Positions 13,056 through 37,550 of a stretch of DNA of 64,000 nt are shown one piece after another (the stretch's first letter is position 1; every line of letters starts with the position of its first letter). The position numbers and the translations under genes were made by a program. Source of the DNA: Malacoraja senta (Eukaryota). The notes beneath the pieces were generated by a model, which did not search any database, was not told the origin of the DNA, and saw nothing but the letters and a program-made list of their open reading frames with translations. Location of the stretch: contig CM075989.1 in NCBI GenBank assembly GCA_038087875.1, forward strand, positions 16,804,001 through 16,868,000, read 5' to 3'.

Positions 13056-13082
13056 CGCGGTCGTGAGCAGAGAATAAATATA

Positions 13083-13567
13083 ATGAGCGAGGATGTGATG
13101 CTTGGGTCGTCGCTGTTGACTGAGATGCAAGCGCCTGAAATGATTATGGGCTGCGAACATCCAAACTCGGAGGGGTTCTGCTACTTACTGGCGTTGGATT
13201 ATTTCCGCTTTGTGCTAGACGGCTCGGAGTCGCAGCCGGCGGCCAACAGAGCGGCTGAAACTCTGCGCCGCTCCGGCTCCTCGTTGCTCGCAGACGGCCA
13301 GGAATTACAGCGCTGCGTCGACAAATTAAACCTGGGGTCGTGGAAGAGACGAAGCGAGTGCTCCCCGACTTAATGAGAGAGGTCTACTCGGACGGGATTG
13401 ATAACTGGGGCAGGATTGTAACTTTGTACACTTTCTGTGGGGCCCTGGTCAGGCACTTGATAGAGAAGGGCGTTCCGGAGCGAGAGCTGATAGAAGAGGT
13501 AGCTCATTGTGTCGCCCAATACACTTGGACTCACCAAGCTGCGTGGATCAAAGAGAATGGAGGCTGG
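13083..13567 (+). CDS. BCL2A1: BCL2A1 (Bfl-1/A1)-like anti-apoptotic protein, coding exon 1 (1-nt deletion at ~13334-13340 in this sequence)
   Basis: N-terminal helix YLLALDYFRFVL resembles A1 YRLAQDYLQCVL. After the shift come BH1 EVYSDGIDNWGRIVTLYTF and BH2 WIKENGGW, then a phase-0 donor GTAAGA at 13568. It lies next to MTHFS on the same strand, as BCL2A1 does in tetrapods. The start could also be the ATG at 13146. Confidence 0.85.
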
Positions 13568-16117
13568 GTAAGAGGAAGATTTTGATCAACTTTGAACCAG
13601 TGTGCGCCCGCTCACGCGTCGTCATTTCAGTTTAAATGTTTGGTGGTGGGTTGTATTTTAGAGTCAGAGAGTCACACAGCATGGAAACAGGGCCTTCGGT
13701 CCAATAATGGTAAAGGGACAGGCAACTTGTCACCCCTCCCCACCCCACCACATCAAACCAAAGAAACGTGCCCACTGTTTCTTTATCTTATCTACTCATT
13801 AGATCTTGATTGACTGAAGGGACATTTTTTTGGTATTGGATTCATCATTTCAAATTAATCACTGTATGAAAAGCATTTTCCCAGATATCCTGTTTTCCAT
13901 TTATTCATTTTCATATTATGCTTTACCTTGAAATATTTTTCTGACCTCACTGCGTTGCCATTTAATACCTTGTTCACCTGTATGAACCCCTCCCCCCCCC
14001 TCCCCTCTTGTGACTGCTTTCAGAGGAAAATCAACACCTTTTAAAAAAAAATCAACTACCAAAACTCAATACTTTGATTCCGATTCTAAAGAAGGGTTCC
14101 TACCCAAAACGTCACATATCATTTTTCTCAAGAGATGCTGCCTGAATCACTGAGTTGTTCCTGCACTTTGTGTCTTAACTTTGATTCCAGCATTGGTCTC
14201 ACAGGTGCTCTGCATTACTTCTATGACCAATTATTTTACTGATGTTTTAGTAACTAAAAAACTAGGCCTAGGTGTAGCCTGATCCGATGTTATTATACAT
14301 CATCTAGTCTCCACTCAACTAGTCCAACACTGTAATCAAACATGCTATTGCAAATCCAAACTTACTAGATCTCTCCAACATCGATTACATGCTTGACATA
14401 TTGATTTTTCTCTTCCATTGGGTTTAACCTTCAGCTCATTTACTGACTATACATCTCTTGCTGAAGGTCTTGGCTGCAATGGTTTTGCTTTGGCCAGGTG
14501 CCATGGGTTGGACTTGGCCTGAGAGACCACTAGGTGTCAAATCTCACCAGTCCCTGTGAAGAAATTCTATAATCCATCAGCTCAAATGCCAATCAACAGC
14601 TGAACGGAGCCAGTGTTTCTTCATTTCCTGGTTCTGTGTGTGGCAGAGCCACCTGCTAACCTTTCCCATCCCAATGCCCTTATAACAAGCTTCCTTGTGG
14701 TAACATAGAAACAGTGAAGGTCAATTTGTCTGCAGTTTATTTATCAATTTACCTATTTATTTTAATAGCAAATAAGGATGAGCAGACATTTCTGTTGACT
14801 TGAATATATTGGTATTTTTTGCAGATTACGGTGTCCAAAAAAAATCTGTTTATAAAGGGAACTTTATTAATTTTGTTGCTTAGGCAATATGTAGAAGGCA
14901 GATGTTGAATTTTTTGAATATGTTGAATATTTTTTTTAACACCAAGATAAATTTATCATGATAAAGCTTATATGAAGGAGAATGTCTATCAAATGTAACA
15001 TTTAACAAACAGGACACTAATGTGTGTGTTGGTGTCAAAAACGCATTGCTAACTAACAAGGAAGAGTGAGGAGGTTATAAGTGGTAATTCTGAGTTCCTC
15101 TTCTTACTAGTGCCCTGGTGTGGGTCCGTTGGTTGAACCTGTGTGGTAACAGCACAATACCATGTTGCTGGATTATCTGTACATCAGTCAGCTGGATGAC
15201 CTAAACATTTCACTCACCTCTACAAAACTCTGTTATATCTTTCTCTGATAATATCTTTCCAGTAGTGGGAGAGTCTAAGACCAGAGGACCCAGCTTCAGA
15301 ATAAAAGGTCGTACCTTTTAAATAGAGATGAGGAAGAATTTATTTACAATTATTTTATGAGGAAGAATTTATAAGCTGGAGGTTGGTGAGTCTGTGGAAT
15401 TCGTTGTCACAGATGGCAGTGGAGGCCATTGGGTATTTTATAGGCAGAGATTGGCAGGTTCTTGCTTAGTAAGGCCGTCAAAGGTTATTGGAAAAGACAG
15501 AATGAGGATGAGAGGGTAAAATAAGGTGGAAGAAAGAAAACATTGAACTGTTGGCAAATTAGTGTGACCCTCAAAGATGGGGACTTGCTCAAATGCATTA
15601 TCAAAGACTTCCTAGCAGGAAAAGATTTAATAGGAATCTGAGGGGTAACTTTTTCACACAAAGGGTGGTGAGTGTATGGAACAAGCTGCCAAAGGAGGTA
15701 GTTGAGGCTGGGACTATCCCAACGTTTAAGAAACAGTTTGGCAGGTACATGGATAGGACAAGTTTGGAGTGATATGGACAAAACGCAGGCAGGTGGGACT
15801 AGTGTAGCTGGGATATTTTGACCGGTGTGGCAAGTTGGTCTGAAGGGCCTGTTTCCACACTGTATCACTCTATGACCCCCATGACTAGAAAAATCACAAT
15901 TTGATTAAACAGGTAAAGGTTTGGTAAATGTTAAAAATTGAGTTTGACACATCTGCTGGAGTTTTTGTTTGGATGTATTAATTGGGGCTGATGTGAGGGG
16001 ATGCCCTCAACATTTATTATGGTAAACTATAACACAAACTGTAAAACTGACTCCATGTTTAAAGTAATGTGCAGAAATACTTTACATTTATTGATGTTAA
16101 ATGTACTCTTCTAACAG

Positions 16118-16231
16118 GAGAAAGGATTTGTGGACCACTTCCAGCAGAAAAAGAATCCGCATTTATATGCCAAGATAGCTGCTTTCACGGGGATTGTTGC
16201 TGCCTTTTCCTTTGTGATCTACCAGCATTGA
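16118..16231 (+). CDS. BCL2A1: BCL2A1-like coding exon 2 (EKGFVDHFQQKKNPHLYAKIAAFTGIVAAFSFVIYQH*)
   Basis: Acceptor TCTTCTAACAG (AG at 16116-16117). It continues BH2 as GGW|EKGFVDHF (compare A1 GGW|ENGFVKKF), then a hydrophobic tail and TGA at 16229-16231. Confidence 0.85.
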   Translation, partial: EKGFVDHFQQKKNPHLYAKIAAFTGIVAAFSFVIYQH

Positions 16232-20123: not shown

Positions 20124-20323
20124 NNNNNNNNNNNNNNNNNNNNNNNNNNNNNNNNNNNNNNNNNNNNNNNNNNNNNNNNNNNNNNNNNNNNNNNNNNNNN
20201 NNNNNNNNNNNNNNNNNNNNNNNNNNNNNNNNNNNNNNNNNNNNNNNNNNNNNNNNNNNNNNNNNNNNNNNNNNNNNNNNNNNNNNNNNNNNNNNNNNNN
20301 NNNNNNNNNNNNNNNNNNNNNNN
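20124..20323. other. Assembly gap (200 N)
   Basis: A run of N, flanked on the left by G/GA-rich low-complexity sequence. Confidence 1.
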
Positions 20324-21713: not shown

Positions 21714-21976
21714 TTACTGGCTCATCCCAAGTACCAGAACTGCCAAAGAGTTGCTGTCTTTCTGAGCATGTCTGATGAAATTCAGACAGAAGATATAATA
21801 AAAAGATGTGTTCCAATGTGGAAAACAGTGTTTCATTCCACGGTACAAGACTGGAAGCAACCACATGGATATGGTAAAGCTCAGCTCAGCTGAAGAAATC
21901 CACAACCTGCCCCTGACTTCCTGGAACATTCACCAGCCTGCAGAAGATGTGTTGCTGGAAGAGGCTCTAACCACAG
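21714..21976 (+). CDS. MTHFS: 5-formyltetrahydrofolate cyclo-ligase (MTHFS) exon 2, with one extra A in the A-run at 21800-21804
   Basis: Acceptor TTTTCCTTTCAG, then [30 protein letters not shown] / [57 protein letters not shown], collinear with vertebrate MTHFS. Donor GT at 21977; phase 1 after removing the extra base. Confidence 0.92.
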
Positions 21977-22394
21977 GTTGGTAATTAACTTGGGAATTTA
22001 TTGCTTTTGGACTTTAAACATCTTATTCTTAAGGATTTTACTGAGGCATGGGGCTCTTACACTTGGTTCTCCACATCACAAAGACCTCGAACTCTGTATC
22101 ATCACATATCTTTGCGTTGCCTCAGTCCAAGTTCAGCTGAAATCTTTACCCATCGGTTTGTTCTCTTTAAATTTCGTAACTCCGATGCTGCCTTTGCTGG
22201 CCTCCCATCTTCCACCCTTCATAAATCCCTGTACTGGTAAACTGTGTGTTGACTACTAAAGCAGCAACGCCATGATTTTAAATTTCAACTATGTTCAAAT
22301 AACCCTTCCTGCAATTCCCCTGTTCCCAATTAAGCAACATCCATTCCTCCAACTCAACTTCTGCTGTTAAATCCTTTAGTCTTAAAATATGTGT

Positions 22395-23320
22395 CGGTGG
22401 GGGTGCTGCAAGCCGGCAGCCCTGCCAGCAGCGTTAGTTTTTCTACTTTTTTTTGTTTTTTTTAGTGTGTCCTAATGTGTGTTTTTGGTGTCTCTCTGTG
22501 TGTCTTGTGTGGGGGGTGGTGTGGGGGCTAAGGGGGAAACCGCTTTAGTCGCCTCCTCCACTTTTTCCATGTCGCCTCCCCCGTGGCCTAACAGAAAGGA
22601 TCAGTGCGGCCTTTCCCGGAGACGTGCCCGGGGCTTCAGCGGCAAGCGCAGCGCGGACTCTCGTCGCGGAGCGGGCGAGCCCTCACCGGGGGTCGCCGGA
22701 GGGGAGCGCTCCCGTTTGCTGGCCCGCGGCAGCCTGAAGCCGCGGTGTGCGGAGCTCCAGCTAGCGCAGCGTCCGCAGCCTGGGATCCCACGTTGGGGAC
22801 CTGGGAGGAGAAGAGCTCCAACGGCCGGACCGCGGCCAACTTTTCTACCGCGGGCGCGGGCGGGGACATACCATCCGGAGCGGGGTCCCTCGCGGGGACC
22901 CCTGGAGAGGAGCTCCGACCGCCGGCCCTGCGGTCTGCGGTGCTGCCGGCTGCAGCGCGGCGGGGACTTTAGATCTTCGAACCGCCGGCCTGCGGCCTAC
23001 ACCAACCTGAAGACGTGGTCTCCGGTGGGGAGGCACCAATTCAGGGACTTACCTGGAATTTACCTGGACTTTACCTTGTCTACACATCTGGACGCCCGCA
23101 GCGGCGGCTGCGGAGGGTTGAGGTCCCGACCACGGGGGGAAATGGAGGAGGACTGGCCAAATTTTGTGCCTTCCACCACAGTGATGAATGCTGTGGTGGA
23201 TGTTTGTGTTAAATTTTTATTGTGTTTTTGTGTGTTATTTTTTCATTGTACTGCTGCTGGCAAATTCATTTCACTTGCACTTTATGAGCAAGTGACGAAT
23301 AAAACTGATTGATTGATTGA
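22395..23320 (+). mobile_element. CpG-rich non-coding retroposon (SINE-like) with a Rex1-type 3' tail, inside MTHFS intron 2
   Basis: Ends GTGACGAATAAAAC(TGAT)n. It shares a TCCACCACAG...CTGTGGTGGA hairpin and 3' end with elements at ~49453-49693, ~54010-54755 and 55283-55732. Confidence 0.6.
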
Positions 23321-26300
23321 TGTGAATTATTCCAATAACTGGTTCACTTGCTTTAGCAACTGTGATGAAAATGTGGCTTCATAAAAACCAGCAAAGAAAG
23401 TATGTTTTCAAATGGTAATTTATGGTTTACAGCTTTTTGTCTTTTTTTAAGGTGCTCTTGCTGGTATTGTGCAGTGTGCTTCTAGCCTTTTCATTAAATA
23501 TTTAACTAGGTTATATATTCACCAAAACAGACGTTGGTCAATATAATCTTTGGATGGTTCCAGAAACGAACTAACTAAAATCTGTATGTGTTTGCATCAT
23601 CAATTTTACCTCATTGTTCCAATAACAAAGTATTATTGTATTTAAATCTACTAATTCTGACCATATTTACAATGCTCATTGATCATACAAGTGCAGCTTG
23701 TAACTATTCCCTTTAAGGACCAACACTCTGATTCTGTTTTATTGTTTGCCACGTTGACCATTTGAACGTGATGCAAAATTGACTAACTCTATGCTGTGAT
23801 GTTTGCTGAAGCTAAGAATGCACTTCAAACAATGACACAGCAAAACAGGTTACTGACTGCGATTGTGATTGTTAGCATTTAAAACTGCTATAAGGCCGTG
23901 CATAGAGTAGACGCAAAGTTAATTAGATTATATATCTGAGAGATAAAAGGGCTAAATGTGTACTTCTTTTAAGCTTTACTTCTTTACTTCTTTTCAAGCC
24001 TGAAGTGAAACAATGGCAAACTTTGTTTGTGAAATCCCAAAATGGTGATGTTTACATCTTGGGTCCAATGGAAGCTGTTCCAAGGCCATTCAGCTGAAAA
24101 TTTAACTTCTTCTTTCCCAGTTCAAATCCAATGTAATCCCAGCATTTTGTATTCTACATTTATTTCTTGGAAGCACATTTCTCCAGCTTGCGGAATATCA
24201 GCTGAAATAGGAAATATTTACGCTTGGTGTCAATTTAATGGTTCATTTTTGCTTAGCACCACTCAAATACCATCTGTGCATTATATACCGCATTTGGTAT
24301 TGGATTGCTGTCTGATTTACCATAAAATATAGCCCAACTTTGCTCTCGAGGATAAAATAAACCTATACAATTGAGATTGAATGCTCCTGGGTCATTTCAT
24401 GTCACTAAAAATTAGCCAGGCACTTCCTGGCCTGAATCACATTGAACATCTAATATGATTTCAGCTGCAGGCAGGTATAACATGATGCCATTCCCATGCA
24501 CTGCTCCTTTTCATGGGAAGCATTCTCCACATTGAAACACTCACAGTTCCAGCTGTGGACTCGAAGTGGAACTAGCCTAAATAGCTTTGTAATCCCCAAT
24601 TTCCATTTATATTTTTCCAGGTCTAATCTTGCGCTATTGCTCCATTCACATTTCCTTTAATATCTCACAGTCTAAACCCAATCTCTCACTTGTTCCCCAT
24701 TCCCTCTGACATTTAACTTAGCCTAACCCCACTTTGCCACCTGATACTTATGGCTTTCAAAAATTCTCCTCTGCGCAAGGCAGGCAAAAATATAAACAAT
24801 CTCTTGGGGATCTGCAAGGCTCTCCTCTCATTTATAATTAATTGTAAACAATTTGAATGAAAGCAAACAGCCAAGATTGAAATCTGCTGACAAAGCCAAA
24901 TGGGCTTTGAACAGCACATTCTAATCTCCCTCAGTGTTTACTTCATTCTAAACCTCTTTGAACTGTCTTTATGCCATTATAATAAGGATACCAATAATAT
25001 AAACAGTACTCTAGATGCGATCTTACCAGTGCCCAGAACAGTTGCACAGGACTTCTTTACTTTTATAGTTCACCTGCTTTGCCATAAAGGTCAATGTTCC
25101 ATTTGTGTTTGTAATTATTTGCTGCACCCACATGTTACCATGTTAATACGATGACGGCCAGATCAGTCTTAATCACAGCCTTCTGCAGTCTCTCCATTTG
25201 TTCAATATTCTGCTTTTCTATTCTTGCTGTGAAAGTGAAATAACTTCTAAACCCTAACTGGCAACGTTACTATTTATGACCTCAATCGAACAACACCTTG
25301 ATAACAATCAGTTCTTGTACTTTCCTGTGATGAGATGCTCAAACGTGTCTCTAGATGAGACAGCTAAAATCTTGTGTCCCTGTGTTTCTAAAGTAATCCC
25401 AACCATCTTAATTTTCTTATGTCACTAAATGACCTGCATATCAACATCTGCTTTCAACAATTTTGACCTCTTTAAATGTTTCATTTATCTGGTCTTGTGT
25501 GCTAAATTGTTATCTCATATTTACCCAATGTGTCCAATCTGCCTAATTGTCCTATTAGGATTCTTTCTATAGTCTTTTCCAATCCACCTAATAATTTGAA
25601 GTGCCACTGATCTGGTTTTGTCAGAAAATTTCAGTATTGATCTCTTGCTTCTAAAATCCAAATTGTTTATGTTGGATTATAAATGAGTTTATAATTACAG
25701 GAATCCCCTTGAGAATGTCTTTATTCTTTGCCTTCTGTAAGGGAAATGCAGTGCCTCACACACATTTGGTTACCACATTTGCGTTACCTAATGACTTGCA
25801 TAATACTGGGTGTATTTTTGAATTCTTTGTTTTAAATGAAAGCACTGCCTTTCAAATTACTTAAGTCAAACATAATTTTCAAATTGTGGCTTAGAACTAA
25901 TGTAGAAACATTTTAATTTATTTTATAAGAATACTTAAGAGTTACGTCATAACAACAAGCCTCTCTATAGATTCCCTCTTTTACAATTTTGCCATAGCAT
26001 CTTTTTATTTTTATCTTCTAAATAAGTGAAATCTTGTTGCGTTTCCTGAACGTGTTTGATATGCAGACTGGTTTCTGTTAAATATGAATCTTTCTGTAAA
26101 CTATTTCCTTGTCAGCACGTCTCAATTGATAACATTCTCACCTGTCACTCGGAAGATAGTAGATTCAAATTAAATTTTGTCCCACTTGAGGACACAGATT
26201 AATCTAACACTTGGGTAAATCTATCTGTCAGTCAATGCTTCTCCATGTCAAAGTAGAAGTTAGATTGAGGTCCATTATGCCTGGAGGGGTGGGGGGTAAA

Positions 26301-27522
26301 ATATTACCTGGTTTATTTTGAACATGAGCAGAATTGTTCCAATTGTGATAACCAATATTTAACCCTGAATTCATATCTTAAAACAGATTGTACCCACAGT
26401 TTGTTGACATAGTATAATGCTGTCGTGTTGCTGCATAAATGAATTTGATCATTTGATAAATCATTGTATGACTTGTTTATCAATGAATTGCATTGAGTAC
26501 ACTGGGGATATGCTGCACTTGTGTTTGGAAGTGTCTGGACAGACATTTGTCAGCGAATCATTCATCATGGATACAGGTCTTTCAGACCAACTTGTCCACC
26601 AGTGGGCACCTTTCCTTACTAATCCCATCTGCCAGTAAGTGGTCCATGGCCTTCCATGCCTAGTTTTCAGTGCTCATCTAGCCACTTCTTAAATTCTGCC
26701 AGTGACCTAGCTTCAGCTTATTCTCCCAAGCAGCGCATCAACATTACTCAATGCTCTTCTTGACATTTCCACTAATTTCAGTTACATATGCATGGCCCAT
26801 GGGGAAGATGATCTCCACTGCATAAGGTGCCTACCTCTCCGTAACTTACCATTCTGACTGACTGGTCTGACTGCTCTGATGGGTACTTCCAGCATTTGCA
26901 TGGAATCACCCACCACAGAAGCACAGAAGTCGGCTGTTCTCTAGAGTTCAGGAAAATTAGAGGTGATCACATTGAAATGTACAAATTCCTACACCACTTG
27001 ACAGGAAGGATGCACAGGATGATGTCTCCCCTGGCTGAGGTGTTGAGAACAAGGTGCTACAGATTTACAATAAAGCATTGCACATTGATGAGAAAGACTT
27101 CACTCAGTGGATGGTAAATTCTTGGTATTTACTTCTCAAAAGATCATGGGGAAACTCATTTGCTGAGCAGAGATCAGTGAGCTTTTAGTTACGAAGGGAA
27201 TCAAGAGACATGGAGTTTGTGCTGCAATTCAGTGCTGAGGTGAATAAATCACTCAGGATCTTATTGAATGGTGGAGCAGCCACAAGGGCCAAATGGCCGT
27301 TTCCTACTCCTGCTTCCATTTCTGAGTTTCTAATGGGAAAGAATATTCTTAACTCTCTTTGACATTGTGCTACGTTGTCTTATACATCCTTCTGGGAGAG
27401 CGGACACATCCTTAGTTTAATGTGACACCAGAATAATTCCCTGTACATCCAATTGCTAGAACAGATTGTCAATTCAGATTTTTTTTGTGCACATTTCTCG
27501 AATGGATCATGAAACCATTACG

Positions 27523-28080
27523 TGTAAGAAGGAACTGCAGATGCTGGTTCAAACCGAAAATAGACACAAAAAGTTGGAGTAACTCAGCGGGACAGGCAGC
27601 ATCTCTGGAGAGAAAGAATGGGTTTCGTTTCGGGTCGAGACCCTTCATCAGACTGGTTAGGGATAAGGGAAACAAGAGATATACACGGTGATGTGGAGAG
27701 ATAAAGAACAATGAATGAAAGATATGTAAAAAAAGTAACGATGATAAAGGAAATAGGCCATTGTTAGCTGTTTGTTGGGTGAAAATGCAAAGCTAGTGCA
27801 ACTTGGGTGTGGAGGGACAGAGAGAGGAATGCTGGGGCCAATGAGATAAATCAACATTCATACCACTGGGCTGTAAGCTGCCCATGTGAACTATCCTCCA
27901 ATTGGTGTTTAGTCTCACTCTGATACTTGAGGAGACCTAGGACAGAAAGGTCTGTGTAGAAATGGGAAGGAGAATTAAACTGTCCAGCACCCGGGAGATC
28001 AGGTATGTTCAGGCGGGCTGAGCCAAGGTGTCCCGCAAAACGATCGCCCAGTCTGCATTGTTCTCGCCGATGTATAAGAG
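27523..28080 (-). mobile_element. Penelope-like element 3' fragment with terminal repeat
   Basis: ORF 27851-28132: RLGDRFAGHL...QFNSPSHFYTDLSVLGLL. Minus-strand hammerhead-like core CTGATGA-AGGGTCTCGACCC-GAAAC at ~27620-27654. Confidence 0.75.
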
Positions 28081-30941
28081 TTTGAATCGGAGACAAAATT
28101 TTGCTGCAGCAAAGGGAACAATTATCAGGCATGCACTAACCTACAGTGAACTGGAGAGAGTTGTCAGAGGCAGAGCAGACTTAGTGACCAAGTGTTGTAT
28201 CCAGCCTGTGGGTCAATCAATAGAGTAATTGGGTTTTAGTGTGTTAAGTGTATACCATTTAATTTCATATTTAGGCAGACGCATCAGATGTTAAGGCCCA
28301 TTTCTGAAGAAAGGTCTCGACCCGAAACGTCACCCATTCCTTCTGTCCAGAGATGTCCTTCTGTCCAGAGATTCCTTCTGTCCAGAGTTACTCCAGCATT
28401 TTGTGTCTACCTCCAATTTTTAACCATTGGGATCCTTAAGTCTTGTTTATGGTACATTCTTTTCTCCAAATGATATTGTCATAAACAATTGTCTTACATT
28501 TTATAATATAACTTTATTTAATTGTTCATATTTATTTTGCCTCCATTTGGGTACATTAAATCTCCTGCTACTATTGGCGTTGAAAATGCCCAATTTACCC
28601 AGCAGATGGCAGTGCACTACAAATCTTTGCGAGTTGTTCAAAGTGCTGACCTCCATCAAGTGGCCTGCCTTTGCTAATACCTTTACCTCTGCTTCTTTGT
28701 AGAAGTCCTGATGTCGAATGAGTGTAGACCTGCTCTTAAGCTGTTAATTCAAGTTCCATCTGTCGATTTTTGAACTGACCTTTCTTACGCTATGACATTG
28801 AGTTCTGTGATACAGCATAGACTTGTCGTGCTGCATTACTATGAGCTTACTCTAAGCCATTAATGGTGGTGCTGGTTGAATCATTGTAACAATGTTCATA
28901 TCAGTGGATATTGTCAAGAAGATGATGCCATTTTTGAGTTGCACTGGTATGAAAGGGGATTTGTTTATGTTTTGTCTAAATCAAATTGAACCTGCACATG
29001 AGTCAAATGTCAGGGGAATACGATGACTATAGTTACAACACTGGCATCTCCCCAACAGTGTGGAAAACTGCATAATACATAAATTGCTGGATTGCATCTA
29101 AATATGATTAACCACTTCCATCGAGCATCCTTCAGGCTTAAAAAGCTGCTTGAATCAACAATGAATTAAAGGCCAGGCATTTCTTGAATGTTTACTGTGG
29201 AGACCACTTGAGAACTCCTATCTGAAAGCCAGTGAAATCAGCTGACTGGGCTAATGTTATTTGAGTTTTCAAAATAAACAGCATGGTTTCTGTACAACAG
29301 ATTTCAGAGTGTGCGTTGCTGTGAGTGAAGGGGCTTTGGTGAGCACAGGGATGACAGAGTAATGGGGGTCATTTTATAAATTAGAATGATGGCAGGCGAG
29401 ATCAGTCCATGTGTTGTAAGGCCTGCATTACGTGGGGATTTTGGAGACGTTCCTTGCTGTCTGGATGGCCACTTCTGCAGCCAGTGTCATCAGCATGAGC
29501 TCTGGGTGATGGATTCAATGCCTGTTCGAGACACGACAGTGCTGAGAGGTACGTTGGGAGCACTTTTAGAGTTGGCCTCTCTGCAGCTTAAGGAAACACT
29601 GTTAGAAGGGAATGCGTGATCACCAGGGAGAGGAAGAAAAGTAGGCAGGTAGTTGGGAAGTCCCAGAGTACATGTCACTCTGGAAACTCTTCCGATGTTG
29701 GAAAACAGTCGGGATGCATGCTTCTTTGTGGAGTACAACTGAAGCAAAATCGTGGTGAGTGATTCAGCTGCACAAGGGAAAGAACAGGAGGCCCAAGGGC
29801 ATTAATGGTAGGAGACTTGATAGGGATACCTGAAATTTGATATTGACTCGGTAAGGCTGCACTGTTCAGAAGGAAGATGAGGCACTGAACATCTTCAGAG
29901 ATGCTGCCTGTCCCGCTGAGTTACTCCAGCATTTTGTGTTTACCTGAGGCACTGAAGTGTTCAGTCTCCCCATTACTATAGTCCTGAAGCCCCGATGTCC
30001 CATTGTAACACAAAAACAATGGCTATTGTACATTTTTATTTCATCGTATCCATTCCATGCTTTATCCTACCCAACATCTATTCCCACAGCCTGATATTTT
30101 TCAGGGCTGTAGCAATTGATATTTAATATTGTGGTTAATCTTGCGCACACTTTTCAGGATGGATACAGATCTGGTGAGAAGAGGAAAGCTGATGGATATA
30201 GTCTGTTGTTCACAGGTTTTACCTCCTGGAGAAAGTCTATTCATGAATTATGCTGCAAAGAATAATGAGGTCTAAGATAGAGGACTAGTGGCAGCTAGTT
30301 TGTGGATAATCTGCCTCAGTGTTTGACTAAAAGCAAAAACAGCTGGAAATGCTCAGCAGTCAAGGAGCACGATGAAGAGAGAATAGAGTACTAATTTTCA
30401 TTAGAAATGTGTATTTGGCGGGATTTAAGTACCCAATCATTGTAACTCGGCTACGATTGGGTACAAAATGATACCAGAGAGAAAGAAAGAAATAAGGAAC
30501 AGTAAGAGAATATTAATGTGCAGTGAGGAGGCATTGCTCTCATTTTCCTGTAATGCAGGTACCTAATGTGGATTAAAGGGACATAGAATTCATTTAGATA
30601 TTAAGTTTAGGTGCGAAACTGATCCCACATCAGGGAGATGTGGAAAGTGAAATCCATTATTCACTTAAGAGTGTTTGTTTTCCTTCCAGGGGATTGTTGG
30701 GGGAGTGAGACCTGGGGGTCTAGGGTATCAGTGCTGCCTGACCCACTGAGTTACTCCAGGATTTTTGTCTACATCATTTAGTAAGATAATATTTTACCTC
30801 CATGCCACTGTGCTCACTAACCCAATATCTTTGATTGCCTAAATATCTAAAACCCTATTGATCGCTCTATCAAACACACTCAGCATCATCCCAGTTGGTT
30901 GAAAATTTCAATTGTCCCCAAACCACTGGGTAAACCTCGAA

Positions 30942-31575
30942 GCTAATGGCATGTTGGCCTTCATAACAAGAGAGTTGAGTATAGGAGCAAAGAGGTCATT
31001 CTGCAGTTGTATAGGGCCCTGGTGAGACCACACCTGGAGTATTGTGTGCAGTTTTGGTCTCCAAATTTGAGGAAGGACATTCTTGCTATTGAGGGAGTGC
31101 GGCGTAGGTTCATGAGGTTTATCCCCGGGATGGCGAGACTGTCATGTGATGAAAGAATGGAGCGACTGGGATTGGATACACTAGAATTTAGAAGGAACTT
31201 ATTGAAACATATAAAATTATTGAGGGATTGGACACGCTAGAGGCAGGAAACACGTTCCTGATGTTGGGGGAGTCCAGAACCAGGGGCCACAGTTTAAGAA
31301 TAAGGGATAGGCCATTTGGAACGGAGATGAGAAAAATCTTTTTCACCCAGAGATTTGTGAATCTGCGGAATTTGCTGCCTCAGAAGGCAGTGGAGGCCAA
31401 TTTCTGGATGCTTTCAAGAGAGAATTAGATAGAGCTCTTAAAGATAGTGGAGTCAAGGGATATGGGGAGAAGGCAGGAACGGGGTACTGCGGATGATCAG
31501 CCATGATCACAGTGAATGGCGGTGCCTGGCTCAAAGGGCCGAATGGCCTATTTTGCACCTATTGTCTATTGTCTA
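30942..31575 (+). mobile_element. CR1-like LINE 3' fragment
   Basis: LYRALVRPHLEYCVQFWSPNLRKDILAIEGV...ESRTRGHSLRIR...FFTQRFVNL, with a (TATTGTC)n tail. Confidence 0.9.
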
Positions 31576-32461
31576 CTAAAGAGATTTATTCTCATGTCAG
31601 TCCTTAATGGCTAACTCCTTTGTTTGAGACTGTGATCACTGGTTTTAGACATCCCAGCAAAGGATTTGTCTTTATTTCACTGATAACACGTCCCATTATC
31701 TTAGCTCAAAAGTATGGGCCCTAATTTCTCTTCAGTCATCAATCTGCCACCTCAGTATTTAACCTACTGCACCTTTGTTGTGCTCCCTCCTTCACATAAT
31801 GGAAGGACAAACCTGTACAAAATATTTTCGGCATGTTCTCAGTGTTACCCTCTATAATCAGAACATGATGTCTTTACTGTTCTTTATTCTTCTACTCAGA
31901 TCTTCCAATGAAGGCAATGCACCATTTGACTTCCCAGTTGCTACTGAATCTGCTTAATCCCTTAATCTTTAGTGCTTTGTGTACAAGGACACTCTGGTCC
32001 CTCTGAACACCTTTTCATTTCTCGCCATTCACAAAAATACTCTGCTTTTCTATTTTTTGTTCGTCCGAAAGCTCCAAATTCTACTGTTCCCCTGAATCTG
32101 GCTTTCCTTTTCTTCCCCACTTGTATCTCTCTCTCTCTCTCATTATTCCATCTCCCCACTTAACCTTCCCCACCACCTTCTACTTAGCCTCCCCACCTCC
32201 CCCTCTGACCAACTGCTCATTCTCTGCTGGTATACAGTTACTCCTTGGCATAATGCTCACTCCTCGGATAGATATCTGATCTTGTCCTAATCTTTTCATT
32301 ACCTTCCAACCTCAATTTATTGTTGTAAAGTGGAATGCTTTAATCAACATTTAAAAGCCATTCATCATATTGGTGATGTTTTAATTAAAGTCATGTCATT
32401 ATTTGTTTTACTACCAGCTGTGAGAATCAATACACAAAAGTCCAATCACGATGCTTTAGTC

Positions 32462-32467
32462 TTTATT
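32462..32467 (-). terminator. Candidate poly(A) signal of the nested C1q-domain gene
   Basis: TTTATT on + (AATAAA on -) about 770 nt beyond the TAG; another candidate lies near 32316. Confidence 0.3.
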
Positions 32468-33233
32468 GATAAATCTGCAAACAGCGGTAGCTACTGACTA
32501 CATTCTATAAAATACAGCATGCGTGCATTATCTTTGCACCTTTGAAGTTACATTTGCCTTGTTTTGCCAAGCAGGCCATGATTTAATGTGTAGGAAGGAA
32601 CTGCAGATGCTGGTTCAAACTGAAGATTGACACGAAATGCTGGAGCAACTATAGTTATAGGAGAAAGGGAAACGAGAGATATAACGAGCTCTATCTCTCA
32701 TTTCCCTTCCCCTGACTCTTAGTTTAAAGATGGGTCTCGACCGGAAACGTCACCCGTTCCTTCTCTCCAGCGATGCTCCCTTTCCTCGCTGAGTTACTCC
32801 AGCATTTTGTATCTATCTTCAGGCCATGATTTAACTTCCATTCAGACACGGTCTTCAATGATCCGTGCCTTTGGCTCCTCTGCACGGTACTTCATACTTA
32901 GCTTCTAACTCTTTGGCTCTTTTTCAACATTTATCTATGAACTGGATTAATTATTGGAGCACATTCTGCAACAGCCCAAGCAATAAGCATTTTTTTAAAG
33001 CGAAAACACACTTGAAATCATTTGTGATTTCCAGGGACAATCCACTCTCCTTTTTGGTGTCTGGACATGTGAGATTGGTGTGACAAAATCTTTGTCTGTA
33101 AAATTGAGCACGTTATTTTCTGACTACTGAAATGAGTATTCAGTAGGTTGTGCTTGAAACGTTAGCCTCTATCCCACCAAGCTCTTATATTGCAACACCG
33201 AAGATAAGAATGAACCCTGACATTTCACGCTGA

Positions 33234-33631
33234 CTACTTAAACTGACAATATATGAGAAATCCCTTGAAGCTGATCGATCCATCCCGGCTCCAGAGTGTT
33301 CCTTTTTCAAGCAGGACCCACACAGAGTCATACCTTTGGAGTTCCAATATGACATTCTGGACAGTGAGCTGGCTGGTATTTGGTGCCAGCACACTGTGGA
33401 TGTTACTGATTCTTGTGCCATTCTTCATCAGGACCACGTCAGTTTGAACCCCTTGCATTGGCAGAGCAGAAAAACTGAAGAAGTATGTCCCAGCCAAAGG
33501 GCTTGAGAACTTCCCAGTTTTCAAATTGAATGCTCCGGCTTTGTTGGCCCTGACCTTATCATAAATAATGATCTGGTTGGGCACATTCACATGATTGTCT
33601 GTATTACGCTCTGCATCAAAACTCACGTTGC
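33234..33631 (-). CDS. Secreted globular C1q-domain protein, last coding exon (entire gC1q domain)
   Basis: VSFDAERN...IIIYDKVRANKAGAFNLKTGKFSSPLAGTYFFSFS...VVLMKNG...QNVILELQRYDSVWVLL...ISFKGFLIY carries the standard gC1q motifs. Acceptor CTTTCACAG, phase 1; TAG at 33236-33234. Confidence 0.92.
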
Positions 33632-34972
33632 CTGTGAAAGTAAAAATCGTAGATTGATCCTAATGGCAATATGACTACTTTTATTGTCTCTCCTTATTGA
33701 TGATGTAAAGATTAAAGTGTAGAGCACAATCCACCTTGTATATAAGCAAACAAAATTCAAACAATTTGAGGCAATTGACTCTTGGATTGGAAATGGAAAA
33801 GTGCAAATCACATTCTAGAGCATTTAATTATGGGGTTATTCAAAGGGAAAGCAGTTGAATACTGAGAGAAAAATAAAAATGGGCAGCTTTGATAGAGTCA
33901 ATGGCCCGGGCAGCGTTTAGCTGCATTCCTGTAACAGACTACAGAATTGCATTTCAGAACGGCAAAGTTGGAGCTTCCTGAGGAACCAAAGGGTTGAGAG
34001 TAGGTGAATCAGCAAGGGAGAGAAGTGGGCGTACGACAGATGTTGGGTTAATAATACAGGTGAAACCAGGTTGAATACGAAAAGATTAGAGGGGAAAATG
34101 AAAAAGCATATAAAAGATAATACATGGACAGTCAACATAAATTAAGCTTCTATAGAGTAAATTAAGAAAATTCCCCTTGGTTGAAATGTCAGGATCCAGA
34201 AAAAAATATAAACTTCTTTATTGCAGCAATTAGTGATGACCTGAAATGCATTATCCTCGATAACGTGCAGACAGTAAATTTGGTCATGTTTATCAAACAA
34301 GAATTGGAGAACTACTTGAAGGAACAATGTTTCCAAGCACAAGAAAGGAGCCAATGGATCAGTCTATCACAAGTACTCCTCGAAGAATTTGAACTGGATT
34401 GGATGGATTACAGTAAATGTCCTTTTTGTGCTGGAATGAGTTACTTCCAGTTTATGTATCTGGCAGGTTGTTGCAGAGTAAATGTACTCCTAAAAAAGAT
34501 ACAAAGTGCCAGAATAACTTAGTGGATCAGGCAGCATCCCTGGAGAACATGGGTACGTGACATTTTGGGTCGGGACCCTTAGTACTAATTATAGGTTTAT
34601 CATCTGTGGCCTTTGTCCAACTATATGCCAATCAAAACCCCGCCTCGCCTATGTTTACCAATTACTGACCGTGATTTGTCATTCCCCCTCCTCTCTTCCC
34701 GGTTTCCCTCCCTCTCCTCCCACCCCTAAAAAAAGTCAGTTTGAAGAAGAATCCCGACCCTCTGAGTTACTCCAGCACTTTGTGTATTTTTCTATAGACC
34801 AACAACTTGTTTCTAAATCTACCTGGAATTAGTTATGGTGTAATTATTATTATTGACACGAGATTAATATGTTTTATTAACTCATGAATTAACTCATGGT
34901 TGAATTACGTGGCCATCATGGCAACAACAATTCGTTATACCCACAACTTTTTTTTTGCAAAAGAAAACTCAC

Positions 34973-35063
34973 CTCTGCACTGAATATTATCCTTTCTCAT
35001 TTTGGGATTTACCATTTGAGCCTGGTGCAGTGGTTTCACATCCATTTCTTCATCAGGTGTTTT
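34973..35063 (-). CDS. C1q-domain gene coding exon 3 (KTPDEEMDVKPLHQAQMVNPKMRKDNIQCR-G)
   Basis: 91 nt, acceptor ...GGTTCAG, donor AG|GTGAGT. Phase 0 in and phase 1 out, matching both neighbours; no stops. Confidence 0.75.
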
Positions 35064-35788
35064 CTGAACCATTCAAATAATTGGAAGAAAACTCATCAAT
35101 TGTTTAGGCCATTCATTAATAAAGAATCAATCAATCAATCAATTAATTAATTAATCCCTAATAGTGTTTTTTTTGTTGCCAAAAGTCATTTTGGAAGATC
35201 TTAACACTTTAAACCGTACAATGCAAAATTACTTTTGAATCTTTAACACAAGATATATTTGGCTTCTGTGATGGTTTATGTAAAACGTATATTGCAGAGG
35301 AAATAATGTCAACTGGAAGAGACACGACCATGAAGAAATTCAAATAATAGAATGATAACTTAAATGGAAGATGTTTGGGATCCACATTCAATGAACAAGG
35401 ATAGGATTGGTGGGGGAGTTAGAGGGTGAAATAAGATGTATAGATAAAAAGAGAGTGAGAGAGGAAGAAAGAGTAGCAGTAAGGCGCAAAAGGAGAATAA
35501 AGATGTAGAAGGAGGGAAGGAGCATAGGAACAGATGCAAGGCAAGAGAAAGGATGGGAAGAAACAGTAAAAGATCATGAAGCAAACTAATCAGATACAGA
35601 ACGGTGATATCAGAGCAAAGATAAATAATTGGACAATCAAAGAATAACAGGAACAGAGAGATGAAGGGAAAGAGTGCAAAATGAACTGGAATATTGTGAC
35701 CGTAAGGGGGGAAAGGCAGAGAAAGAAATAACTGGTGTAATTCAAATGGAGTATTAGAAAATACATATAATGAATTTTCTATCCTTAC

Positions 35789-35866
35789 CTGAAAATCTTC
35801 CAGATGATCGTCCAAAGTGCTCGATTGATAGATACAGTAAAAGAGGATCAAATACAGCAGGTTTCT
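35789..35866 (-). CDS. C1q-domain gene coding exon 2 (signal peptide: RNLLYLILFYCIYQSSTLDDHLEDFQ)
   Basis: 78 nt, acceptor TTTTATTTTATTTCAG, donor CAG|GTAAGG; a hydrophobic stretch followed by small residues (S-S-T). Confidence 0.75.
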
Positions 35867-35945
35867 CTGAAATAAAATAAAACATCCTTTCACTTGGGCA
35901 AAAAGAACCACATTTGTTAAACATTGCCAATGCAACTTCACATAC

Positions 35946-35948
35946 CAT
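35946..35948 (-). CDS. C1q-domain gene exon 1 coding part (initiator ATG only)
   Basis: ATCAAAATG|GTATGT (A at -3, good donor), then a 79-nt intron to exon 2. Total CDS is 3+78+91+398 = 570 nt, i.e. 189 aa plus stop. Confidence 0.65.
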
Positions 35949-36018
35949 TTTGATCACAGCAGCTTTCTTCTCTCCAACCTCTTGTTCAGCCAATGTGTTT
36001 GATCTTCAGGTCGTTTGG

Positions 36019-36024
36019 TTTATA
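36019..36024 (-). promoter_or_regulatory. TATA box of the nested C1q-domain gene
   Basis: TATAAA on the minus strand ~70 nt upstream of the ATG, implying a start site near 35995. Confidence 0.55.
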
Positions 36025-37326
36025 ACTCCTTCTGTTTCACACATTTGAAGCATCGCCAAATGAGATTTGGTAATATTTTGGTGCTTCCTCCAAATATGTC
36101 GTAAGTCCAGCCTCCAAAGTAGCAAACCCAGAGTCAGTATCATTCTTGCTGATGAATCATCCCTAAATGTTTATGAACATGTTGCTGAGTTTGCCAACTC
36201 GAGGCACTGTCCTGAACAAATCGAGGGCCATACGGGCATCTGAGAAGAATGGTGTTGTTGTCACTTCACACATGCACACACAAAATAATCCTCGCATCTT
36301 CATCCTGAGTCCTAGCTTCCAGTTCTTGGAATCATTTCGTTGGTACTTCTGTAGCTTTTGCTTTTCTGTCCACTTCTGACTTGTTTCTTCTGTTATATCA
36401 CAAACAGAGCCAGGGGTAAACTATTTGGGCTTCAATCCTGCTCCACTATTCATTCAAAATAATGATTGATCTTTCTCATTATGATAATGATTGATCTTTC
36501 TCCTGCATTATGTCAATATCCCTTAATATCCAGAAATCTATTCTCTGAACACAAGTAAGCAACTGCTAAGAAAATAATTAAACAATGAAGTACATTAAAG
36601 TAGATTTCCACAATTTTATTAATAGTAAACTTGATGTTCCCTTGATCTTTATACATTATAATAATGTGTTTCATGAAGTATGACGTACTGTTAAACATCT
36701 TGAGATTATGAAAAGCCCTCTAATTCCAAGATATTTTTCTTGAATACTTTTTTAGCTTCACGTTTTCTAGAACCAATAATATTCTCACATCTTGCTTGCC
36801 TTAGAAAAGCTTGTATTGGCCTGAAATGTGTGCCTTTTCTGTTTTTATTGCAGCTTTACAGTATCTACAGTTTCTTACTTTAAGAATAGAGGACAAGGCT
36901 TTGTTGGATTTTTTATTTAGTTGTGTGGAGCCTCTTCTATACGGTCCCATTAAATGCTTCCAGATCATCATCATGGTGAAAGGAGTCTATTTGAGGGCAA
37001 CAATAAAAACTTCTGTTATTCTTAACTTTAAACAACTTCTGAAATATTTCACAACAGCTTTATTAAACAAGACTTAATATTTATATTACTACCTTAAACT
37101 TCCTATTATTTTGCATTCAGTAAAAGTCACACAGATGTAGTCCAAAAATATTTGATATCAACCCATGCAACAAATGAAAACAGAAAGACAGGGGCTTGCT
37201 TGTTCAAGTTCCTCAGCTGGACACTCTCTTCTGACATGTAGTTTGGTGTGTTTTTTTTAACCTTCATATGGTTATGTACTTGATATTCTTTCTCTTTCAA
37301 CTTAGTATTCATGCTCTTTCAAACAG

Positions 37327-37550
37327 GAGGCCTTGATCTGATCCTGATGCCTGGACTGGGGTTCGACAAACATGGCAACAGATTGGGAAGAGGGAAGGGT
37401 TACTATGACACTTACCTGGAGCGTTGTCTTAAGCATCCAAAGGGCAAACCCTACACAATTGCCTTGGCCTTCAAGGAGCAGATATGTGATCTGGTGCCTG
37501 TGACTGAAAGTGATAAGCTAATTGATGAAGTATTGTATGAGACATCGTAG
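37327..37550 (+). CDS. MTHFS: MTHFS exon 3 (last coding exon)
   Basis: Acceptor TTTCAAACAG, then (G)[73 protein letters not shown], containing the [10 protein letters not shown] signature. AATAAA at 37596 and 37812. Confidence 0.96.

Follow-up and report, generated by a model that had tools for sequence, protein, structure and literature searches.

A tandemly triplicated C1q-domain gene nested in the MTHFS locus of the skate Malacoraja senta, with signs of positive selection on its C1q domain

What does a small C1q-domain gene do on the opposite strand of an intron of MTHFS, a gene for a folate enzyme, and why has it been kept there? We addressed this question computationally in 64,000 nucleotides of the skate Malacoraja senta (assembly GCA_038087875.1, contig CM075989.1, forward-strand positions 16,804,001 to 16,868,000; hereafter the window, whose numbering is used throughout). 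The locus holds one of three intact copies of the gene, and the C1q domains of these copies differ far more than the DNA that surrounds them. The triplication and the positive selection, both real points of interest, lay beyond the reach of the initial annotation of this stretch.

The gene consists of four minus-strand exons, all with AG/GT ends, which join into 570 nt and an open reading frame (ORF) of 189 amino acids, as the initial annotation had proposed from the GT-AG junctions and matching phases. The coding part of exon 1 is the ATG only (35946-35948, phase 0), and its junction, M-R/G-N, is the same in the paralogues and the RefSeq orthologues described below. Exon 2 (35789-35866) encodes the predicted signal peptide and the start of an acidic spacer, and exon 3 (34973-35063, phase 1 end) a charged linker with one cysteine; the copies differ by 1-2 substitutions per ~75 nt in the former and by 1-4 substitutions in the latter. 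The entire gC1q domain and the stop codon are in exon 4 (33234-33631), the exon to which the Pfam match and the divergence analysis below refer and which appears as positively selected. A TATAAA on the minus strand (36019-36024), 76 nt upstream of the ATG, is a candidate TATA box and is conserved in both paralogues, in agreement with the earlier proposal that the gene has one of its own. The nearest AATAAA, a candidate poly-A signal, lies 766 nt past the stop codon (32462-32467, minus strand). Since five RefSeq proteins (three skates) share the M-R-N junction and the linker exons, and all splice sites of the gene are retained in two paralogues, the gene model is beyond chance, and the gene is almost certainly real.

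The C1q gene is nested antisense in MTHFS intron 2 (21977-37326, plus strand, 15,350 nt). It is flanked by MTHFS exon 2 (21714-21976, plus strand) and by an intact exon 3 (37327-37550, plus strand), which is 99% identical to that of Amblyraja radiata MTHFS. In addition, contigs from two runs, X1 and X2, join position 21977 straight to exon-3 sequence, across the C1q gene; these runs represent a related organism, other than that of runs X3 and X4, and host splicing was seen there. The nesting is therefore real, because the two host exons flank the gene and spliced contigs join one to the other, and its initial placement between them stands. No transcript of the C1q gene itself was seen: no RNA run was listed as containing the C1q exon, the X1 and X2 contigs over the gene are shallow, unspliced pieces only, and none of the 15 joints listed for these runs (which hold 106 further ones) is a C1q exon joint, a result that speaks neither for nor against expression.

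The nested gene is part of a block, comprising a BCL2A1-like gene, MTHFS and C1q, that is present in three tandem units, which begin at region positions 13059, 89196 and 153686. Units 2 and 3 lie on contig C13 at 16.893 and 16.958 Mb, the block measures 65-80 kb, and the genome searches placed three copies each of the C1q last exon and of MTHFS exon 3 inside a span of 150 kb. The divergence between units is uniform, at 4.1-4.4% over 22-35 kb aligned. Both additional MTHFS copies are broken, and all three C1q copies are intact. In copy 2, MTHFS exon 2 is gone, and the Bcl-2 exon is interrupted by a stop codon and a frameshift. In copy 3, MTHFS has lost 2 nt from exon 2 and 33 nt from exon 3. 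Neither of these copies has the Bcl-2 last exon. The C1q ORF is open in all three units, with 189, 188 and 192 amino acids, and the TATA box and splice sites are retained. Upstream of the gene, a 393-nt tract (36066-36458, minus strand) is identical in copies 1 and 2 against a unit average of 4% divergence. By a rough estimate this is about twice the longest identical run expected at that divergence, and the tract is a candidate for either a conversion tract or a conserved control region.

Two further elements were observed around the copies. Copy 3 carries an open 340-codon transposase frame of the Tc1/Sleeping-Beauty type (L030:6768-7787, minus strand) ~110 nt upstream of its C1q TATA box, within a 2.8-kb insertion that matches window positions 36128-36147, and this insertion may alter the expression of that copy. 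An array of ~44-nt tandem repeats with long open frames occurs upstream of where units 2 and 3 begin and again within unit 3 (L020-L021, L027-L028 and L029; 87.1-88.0, 149.5-151.2 and 166.0-168.6 kb from the window start), and it may have promoted unequal crossovers.

The divergence of exon 4 is 12.8-19.2%, as compared with 3.6-4.1% in the adjoining 1.8 kb, and it falls at the exon edges; the C1q domain thus changes ~4 times faster than the surrounding DNA. MTHFS, Bcl-2 and C1q exons 2-3 of the same units show only 1-5% divergence. The second codon positions of exon 4 differ at 13-23% (Fisher's test against the flanks, p 1e-5 to 1e-12), and 8 of its 115 four-fold sites differ. Between the C1q copies, 39, 36 and 30 of 125 residues are different, whereas simulations free of selection, with doublet mutations as in the flanks, averaged 11 and never exceeded 25 in 10,000; simulations at 7% divergence with 35% doublets gave P ≤0.002. 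Codon-based maximum likelihood (codon-ML) comparison of models M1a and M2a yielded 2dL 32.6 and p 8e-8 for the domain, with omega2 ~9 on 36% of the sites, and p 3e-10 when the whole gene was used. The longest branch was that of the window copy (0.70 versus 0.21 and 0.29). Paralogues within other skates showed a pattern like that of the window copies, with 3/56 N-terminal versus 49/125 domain differences in Leucoraja erinacea and 2/55 versus 20/125 in Rhinoraja longicauda. The core of the fold is spared: only 7 of 42 hydrophobic-consensus sites vary, whereas 41 of the 84 remaining sites do, and the changes also keep away from strands C, D, F and H. Taken together, positive selection on the C1q domain is highly probable.

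The product has the features that the initial annotation had read from the translation, including a complete gC1q domain. Pfam C1q (PF00386) matched it with 76.9 bits (cut-off 23.7; E 2e-21) over profile positions 2-127 of 127, and the AlphaFold2 model (predicted local distance difference test, pLDDT, 86.9) resembles the gC1q structures of C1QL1, Caprin-2, Cbln1 and C1q at TM 0.85-0.92. The start proposed to be signal-peptide-like is a hydrophobic stretch at residues 4-13 (Kyte-Doolittle 9-mer peak 2.6), conserved in 9/9 close relatives. A Gly-X-Y repeat is absent from 10/10 full-length proteins, Pfam showed a single domain, and the three expected sequons are found at NVS59, NGT128 and NTS142. 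The linker was said to have one cysteine; it does, although the whole protein has three (12, 56 and 186), and the linker cysteine, single in 8/9 close relatives, is missing from XP_078283244. The acidic spacer is followed by no conserved basic cleavage site.

We then considered the assembly of the protein. The homotrimer model scored 0.95 versus 0.02 for the best control, a value that may reflect memorization by the model, as similar trimers are already solved; the runs share at least 98% of contacts, with pLDDT of at least 91. The mark used for trimers, calibrated on microbial proteins, was attained by 21/30 solved one-chain pairs and 0/23 monomers. The C1q protein is predicted to be secreted and homotrimeric. 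The selected sites are neither enriched in nor depleted from the predicted interface (6 of the 14 listed, versus ~40% of residues), after removal of the C-terminal naive empirical Bayes sites 186-188, judged to be artefacts of the alignment, and of two linker sites. We rejected H78, S79 and Q87 (model numbering) as a candidate sugar pocket: these residues sit in the predicted trimer contact, and their conservation therefore requires no ligand.

Is the gene confined to this skate? Word-indexed searches of RefSeq returned orthologues, annotated automatically, from three skates and a stingray: Amblyraja radiata XP_032906509, Leucoraja erinacea XP_055517140 and XP_055517142, and Rhinoraja longicauda XP_078283244, -346 and -359, all called "C1q TNF-related protein 3/4-like", and Hypanus sabinus XP_059808585, called "cerebellin-4-like". 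These proteins, which bear automatic names only, have the same N-terminus and 186-203 amino acids, and the skate ones are 58-70% identical in the domain. By the criterion of the initial annotation itself, the existence of the gene is accordingly not novel, since the RefSeq sets of four batoids already contain it next to MTHFS. In 4/4 species, at least one C1q accession is adjacent to an MTHFS accession on a contig of equal length, taken to be the same chromosome (endings 506/508 and 509; 140/142 and 143/144; 243 and 244; 584 and 585), which suggests, indirectly, that the nesting predates the skate-stingray split. The literature searches made here listed no paper on the C1q gene, on the triplication with host decay or on the selection; supplementary gene tables may mention the orthologues.

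More distant relatives were collected by a HMMER scan. P0046 and P0048 (~170 bits) have the same signal peptide and are sister to the batoid group, and further collagen-less, single-domain relatives scored 90-118 bits. In a quick tree of 63 rows, built from proteins of at most 300 amino acids among the 150 listed, all of these and three paralogues on contig C9 form one clade (Shimodaira-Hasegawa-like approximate likelihood ratio test 96). Set against other C1q loci of the genome, the clade stands on a long branch with 100/99 support and excludes L089 as well as further single-exon C1q loci. The C9 genes lie at 38.90, 38.93 and 39.12 Mb and have open gC1q exons (L042:2507-2893, plus strand; L044:9052-9438, plus strand; L063:8232-8618, minus strand) with 40-45% identity; their exon plan is that of the window gene, and their N-terminus is different. 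A 1,019-nt Logan contig encodes a C9-type gene with its exons joined. The C9 genes have no non-coding DNA in common with the window gene. Searches for Bcl-2 and MTHFS gave nothing on C9, and we rejected an ohnologous origin of the cluster as unshown.

The solved human C1q families all stand at much the same distance from this one, and hence both "cerebellin-like" and "CTRP3-like" are misnomers. With no human C1q member as a clear orthologue, the earlier view of a lineage-restricted, collagen-less and predicted secreted gene is upheld; its likening to cerebellins is not, since the family is no closer to these than to other C1q families. The skate protein shares with cerebellins (CBLN1-4) and the precerebellin-like proteins of teleosts a collagen-less build with a gC1q domain and, by prediction, secretion, at 25-29% identity. 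Its profile scores to Cbln (56-58 bits) are below those to C1QL (65-70) and collagen X (68), as well as those to Caprin-2, adiponectin and C1qB, a comparison made by profile, as the tree contains no named Cbln. Cerebellins have two conserved N-terminal cysteines for hexamer formation and a C1q domain split across exons. The cysteine pair is absent in the skate family, and the skate domain is in one exon, unlike the cerebellin-type domains of this genome, which are found as partial-domain exons. The gC1q fold and, by prediction, secretion are common to CTRP3 (C1QTNF3) and CTRP4 too, but the skate protein has no collagen repeat and a single rather than a tandem domain, and the genome has separate loci that we take, from their motifs, to be CTRP3-like (L103) and CTRP4-like (L089). 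In an alignment to adiponectin, two acidic positions, which we presume to bind Ca2+, are S and Q in the skate protein; the canonical Ca2+ site is thus probably absent, as in Cbln1.

The closest parallel in architecture is provided by the collagen-less C1q-domain proteins of bivalves and other invertebrates (sghC1q; for example oyster clusters and the OXYL lectin), which have a signal peptide, one gC1q domain and tandem duplications, and for which two papers describe positive selection at few sites with the fold conserved (PMC6835236, PMC10672478). In the ESM Atlas, the clusters nearest to the skate protein are for the most part C1q proteins of molluscs. The skate genes are a vertebrate clade with 3+3 copies, and the similarity is one of architecture, not of orthology. 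According to PMC6835236, the oyster genes expanded by tandem duplication under episodic positive selection and encode lectin-like binders of microbes. In trout, one of the acute-phase proteins of the plasma is precerebellin-like (PMC7579410).

By analogy with these secreted C1q proteins of oyster and fish, a role in innate recognition is the most likely one for the skate gene. The predicted collagen-less trimer, circulating or mucosal, would recognize foreign molecules; the selecting partner would be a microbe or parasite surface, and the C1q surface would track a changing foreign ligand. Unequal crossing-over may have made the copies, and the nested C1q gene, rather than its MTHFS host, would be the reason why they were kept, for new specificities, while the MTHFS hosts around the two additional copies decayed. 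We consider this account as a whole, a selected and triplicated secreted C1q trimer with an innate-defence role, somewhat likelier to be right than wrong.

Several points weigh against this account. The selection tests used three DNA sequences and our own codon-ML code. The whole-domain Nei-Gojobori dN/dS of 1.0-2.0 does not exceed 1 significantly (Fisher p 0.08-0.53), and M0 against omega=1 gave p 0.057. Single-hit codons show 60 nonsynonymous to 14 synonymous changes, near the site ratio, and the selection signal therefore rests on multi-hit codons (9-19 per pair). Adjacent mismatches make up 37-66% in the exon versus 10-18% in the flanks, and there is mild clustering of the informative codons (P 0.025); site tests can be inflated by recombination. 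The related C9 trio gave no significant selection (p 0.24). The RefSeq searches returned no orthologue for Mobula, Hemitrygon or Narcine, though their MTHFS proteins are in the collection. Finally, the immune role is proposed by analogy.

The main rival is reproduction. The protein could be a reproductive secretion, acting in sperm-egg recognition, seminal fluid, or the egg jelly or capsule, with sexual or species-recognition conflict driving its evolution. The selection signature of the C1q gene is the same as in reproductive proteins, of which it is typical, and a small glycoprotein, predicted to be secreted and with sets of paralogues particular to each species, would suit such a role. However, the near functional precedents of collagen-less C1q proteins are immune or lectin-like, and the literature weighed for this explanation does not mention C1q at the level of its listings. 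We regard a reproductive role as rather unlikely.

A defensive secretion of skin, mucus or spine, built like a toxin or antimicrobial precursor, would account for a signal peptide and acidic spacer that are near-invariant from skates to stingray next to a hypervariable domain. A C1q protein, which may or may not belong to this family, is reported from dogfish skin mucus (PMC10707392). However, no basic cleavage site is conserved behind the acidic spacer, C1q has 0 matches in the main text of a freshwater stingray venom transcriptome paper (at listing level), and we know of no venom spine in skates. This explanation is quite improbable.

Slightly less probable still is that the exon-4 differences are mainly short gene-conversion tracts from diverged copies or old allelic lineages, so that diversity was favoured but templated. 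Conversion would fit the numerous adjacent mismatches in exon 4, the 41 informative codons in 21 runs (the clustering given above), the differing segments that the copies share with the L. erinacea paralogues and the 393-nt upstream tract common to copies 1 and 2. Old donors would bring silent differences, though, and the four-fold sites are near the flank level; moreover, 13 codons differ in all three copies, and no donor of >45% identity was found elsewhere in the assembly.

The initial annotation also raised the idea that antisense transcription of the nested gene bears on MTHFS. The arrangement does appear conserved from skates to stingray, but nothing else supports regulation of the host: two of the three C1q copies are intact inside dead MTHFS genes, the selection targets the protein domain, and paralogues with the same exon plan exist on another chromosome without MTHFS. 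We think such regulation very improbable and, from the comparisons above, read the nesting as an old arrangement common to skates and stingray. That the gene is a silent relic, or its three copies an assembly artefact, is scarcely credible, for although the window has consensus errors and a nearby gap, the ORF, splice sites and TATA box are kept in three copies and four named species, the units are 4% divergent with distinct insertions, and run X3, possibly the assembly's own sample, contains contigs identical to the window alongside others of the paralogue type, their depths being much alike (33 and 41).

If an innate-defence role holds, the locus may have wider meaning. Cartilaginous fishes would own a clade of secreted C1q recognition proteins, so far unstudied and misnamed, in an ongoing arms race. 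Co-regulated skate copies, with conserved trimer faces and divergent outer surfaces, would mix into heterotrimers, so that the germline would encode pattern receptors in a small combinatorial repertoire, and the duplications would have been kept purely for their passenger, at the cost of dead folate-enzyme and apoptosis gene copies. This combination of arms race, heterotrimer repertoire and passenger-driven duplication is put forward tentatively, as unlikely to hold in all its parts. The arms-race signature would be among the clearest from a single genome, because the 22-35 kb of co-duplicated DNA act as an internal neutral clock. The gene is a ready candidate for a part in the innate recognition or the reproductive isolation of skates. 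The locus is a clean example of a nested gene that survives as its duplicated host decays.

The neighbours of the C1q gene in the window had been described as frameshifted, in contrast to the gene itself. MTHFS exon 2 contains one extra A at 21800, which is absent in 4/4 runs examined; one X3 contig without it otherwise has no letter difference from the window. The frameshift is therefore most likely a homopolymer consensus or assembly error, and the apparent MTHFS pseudogene is to be re-read in this way; the window MTHFS is otherwise near-identical to that of A. radiata and is the sole copy in the assembly with both exons undamaged. MTHFS exon 1 was not found by motif, pattern or protein searches in the window, in 38 loci or in the whole assembly. 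It is present in spliced contigs, since X1 and X2 also join exon 2 to an exon-1 end matching A. radiata MTHFS, and it probably lies in a 200-N assembly gap flanked by a G-rich run (20124-20323).

The Bcl-2-family gene (13125-16231, plus strand; exon 13125-13567 and last exon 16118-16231; Pfam Bcl-2) is presumably BCL2A1-like, a name that we take from synteny. Its exon has two 1-nt losses, both in CC runs and unique to the window copy; as this is the only copy with the last exon, the gene is probably functional and the two single-C losses errors of the assembly. The contrast with the neighbours thus largely dissolves. An FAH exon lies ~58 kb upstream of the window, on C13, and together with these neighbours it fits what we assume to be the FAH-BCL2A1-MTHFS order of human 15q25.

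Other observations concern the wider C1q family and its surroundings. A scan of 130 of 743 candidate ORFs on C9 and upstream on C13 identified, besides FAH, a single-ORF rhodopsin-type G-protein-coupled receptor between the C9 copies (L058:7677-8639, plus strand), with no solved relative at E 1e-10, and a nitric oxide synthase exon ~48 kb past the third C9 copy (L068:6427-6750, minus strand). P0056, P0060, P0077 and P0092, of the same clade, have a His-rich segment directly before the C1q domain, and a search of this genome gave no closer copy beyond the six genes already described. Collagen-type C1q loci occur in identical-score pairs on C6 (9.83-10.18 Mb) and C8 (33.99/34.03 Mb), possibly as recent or false assembly duplications.

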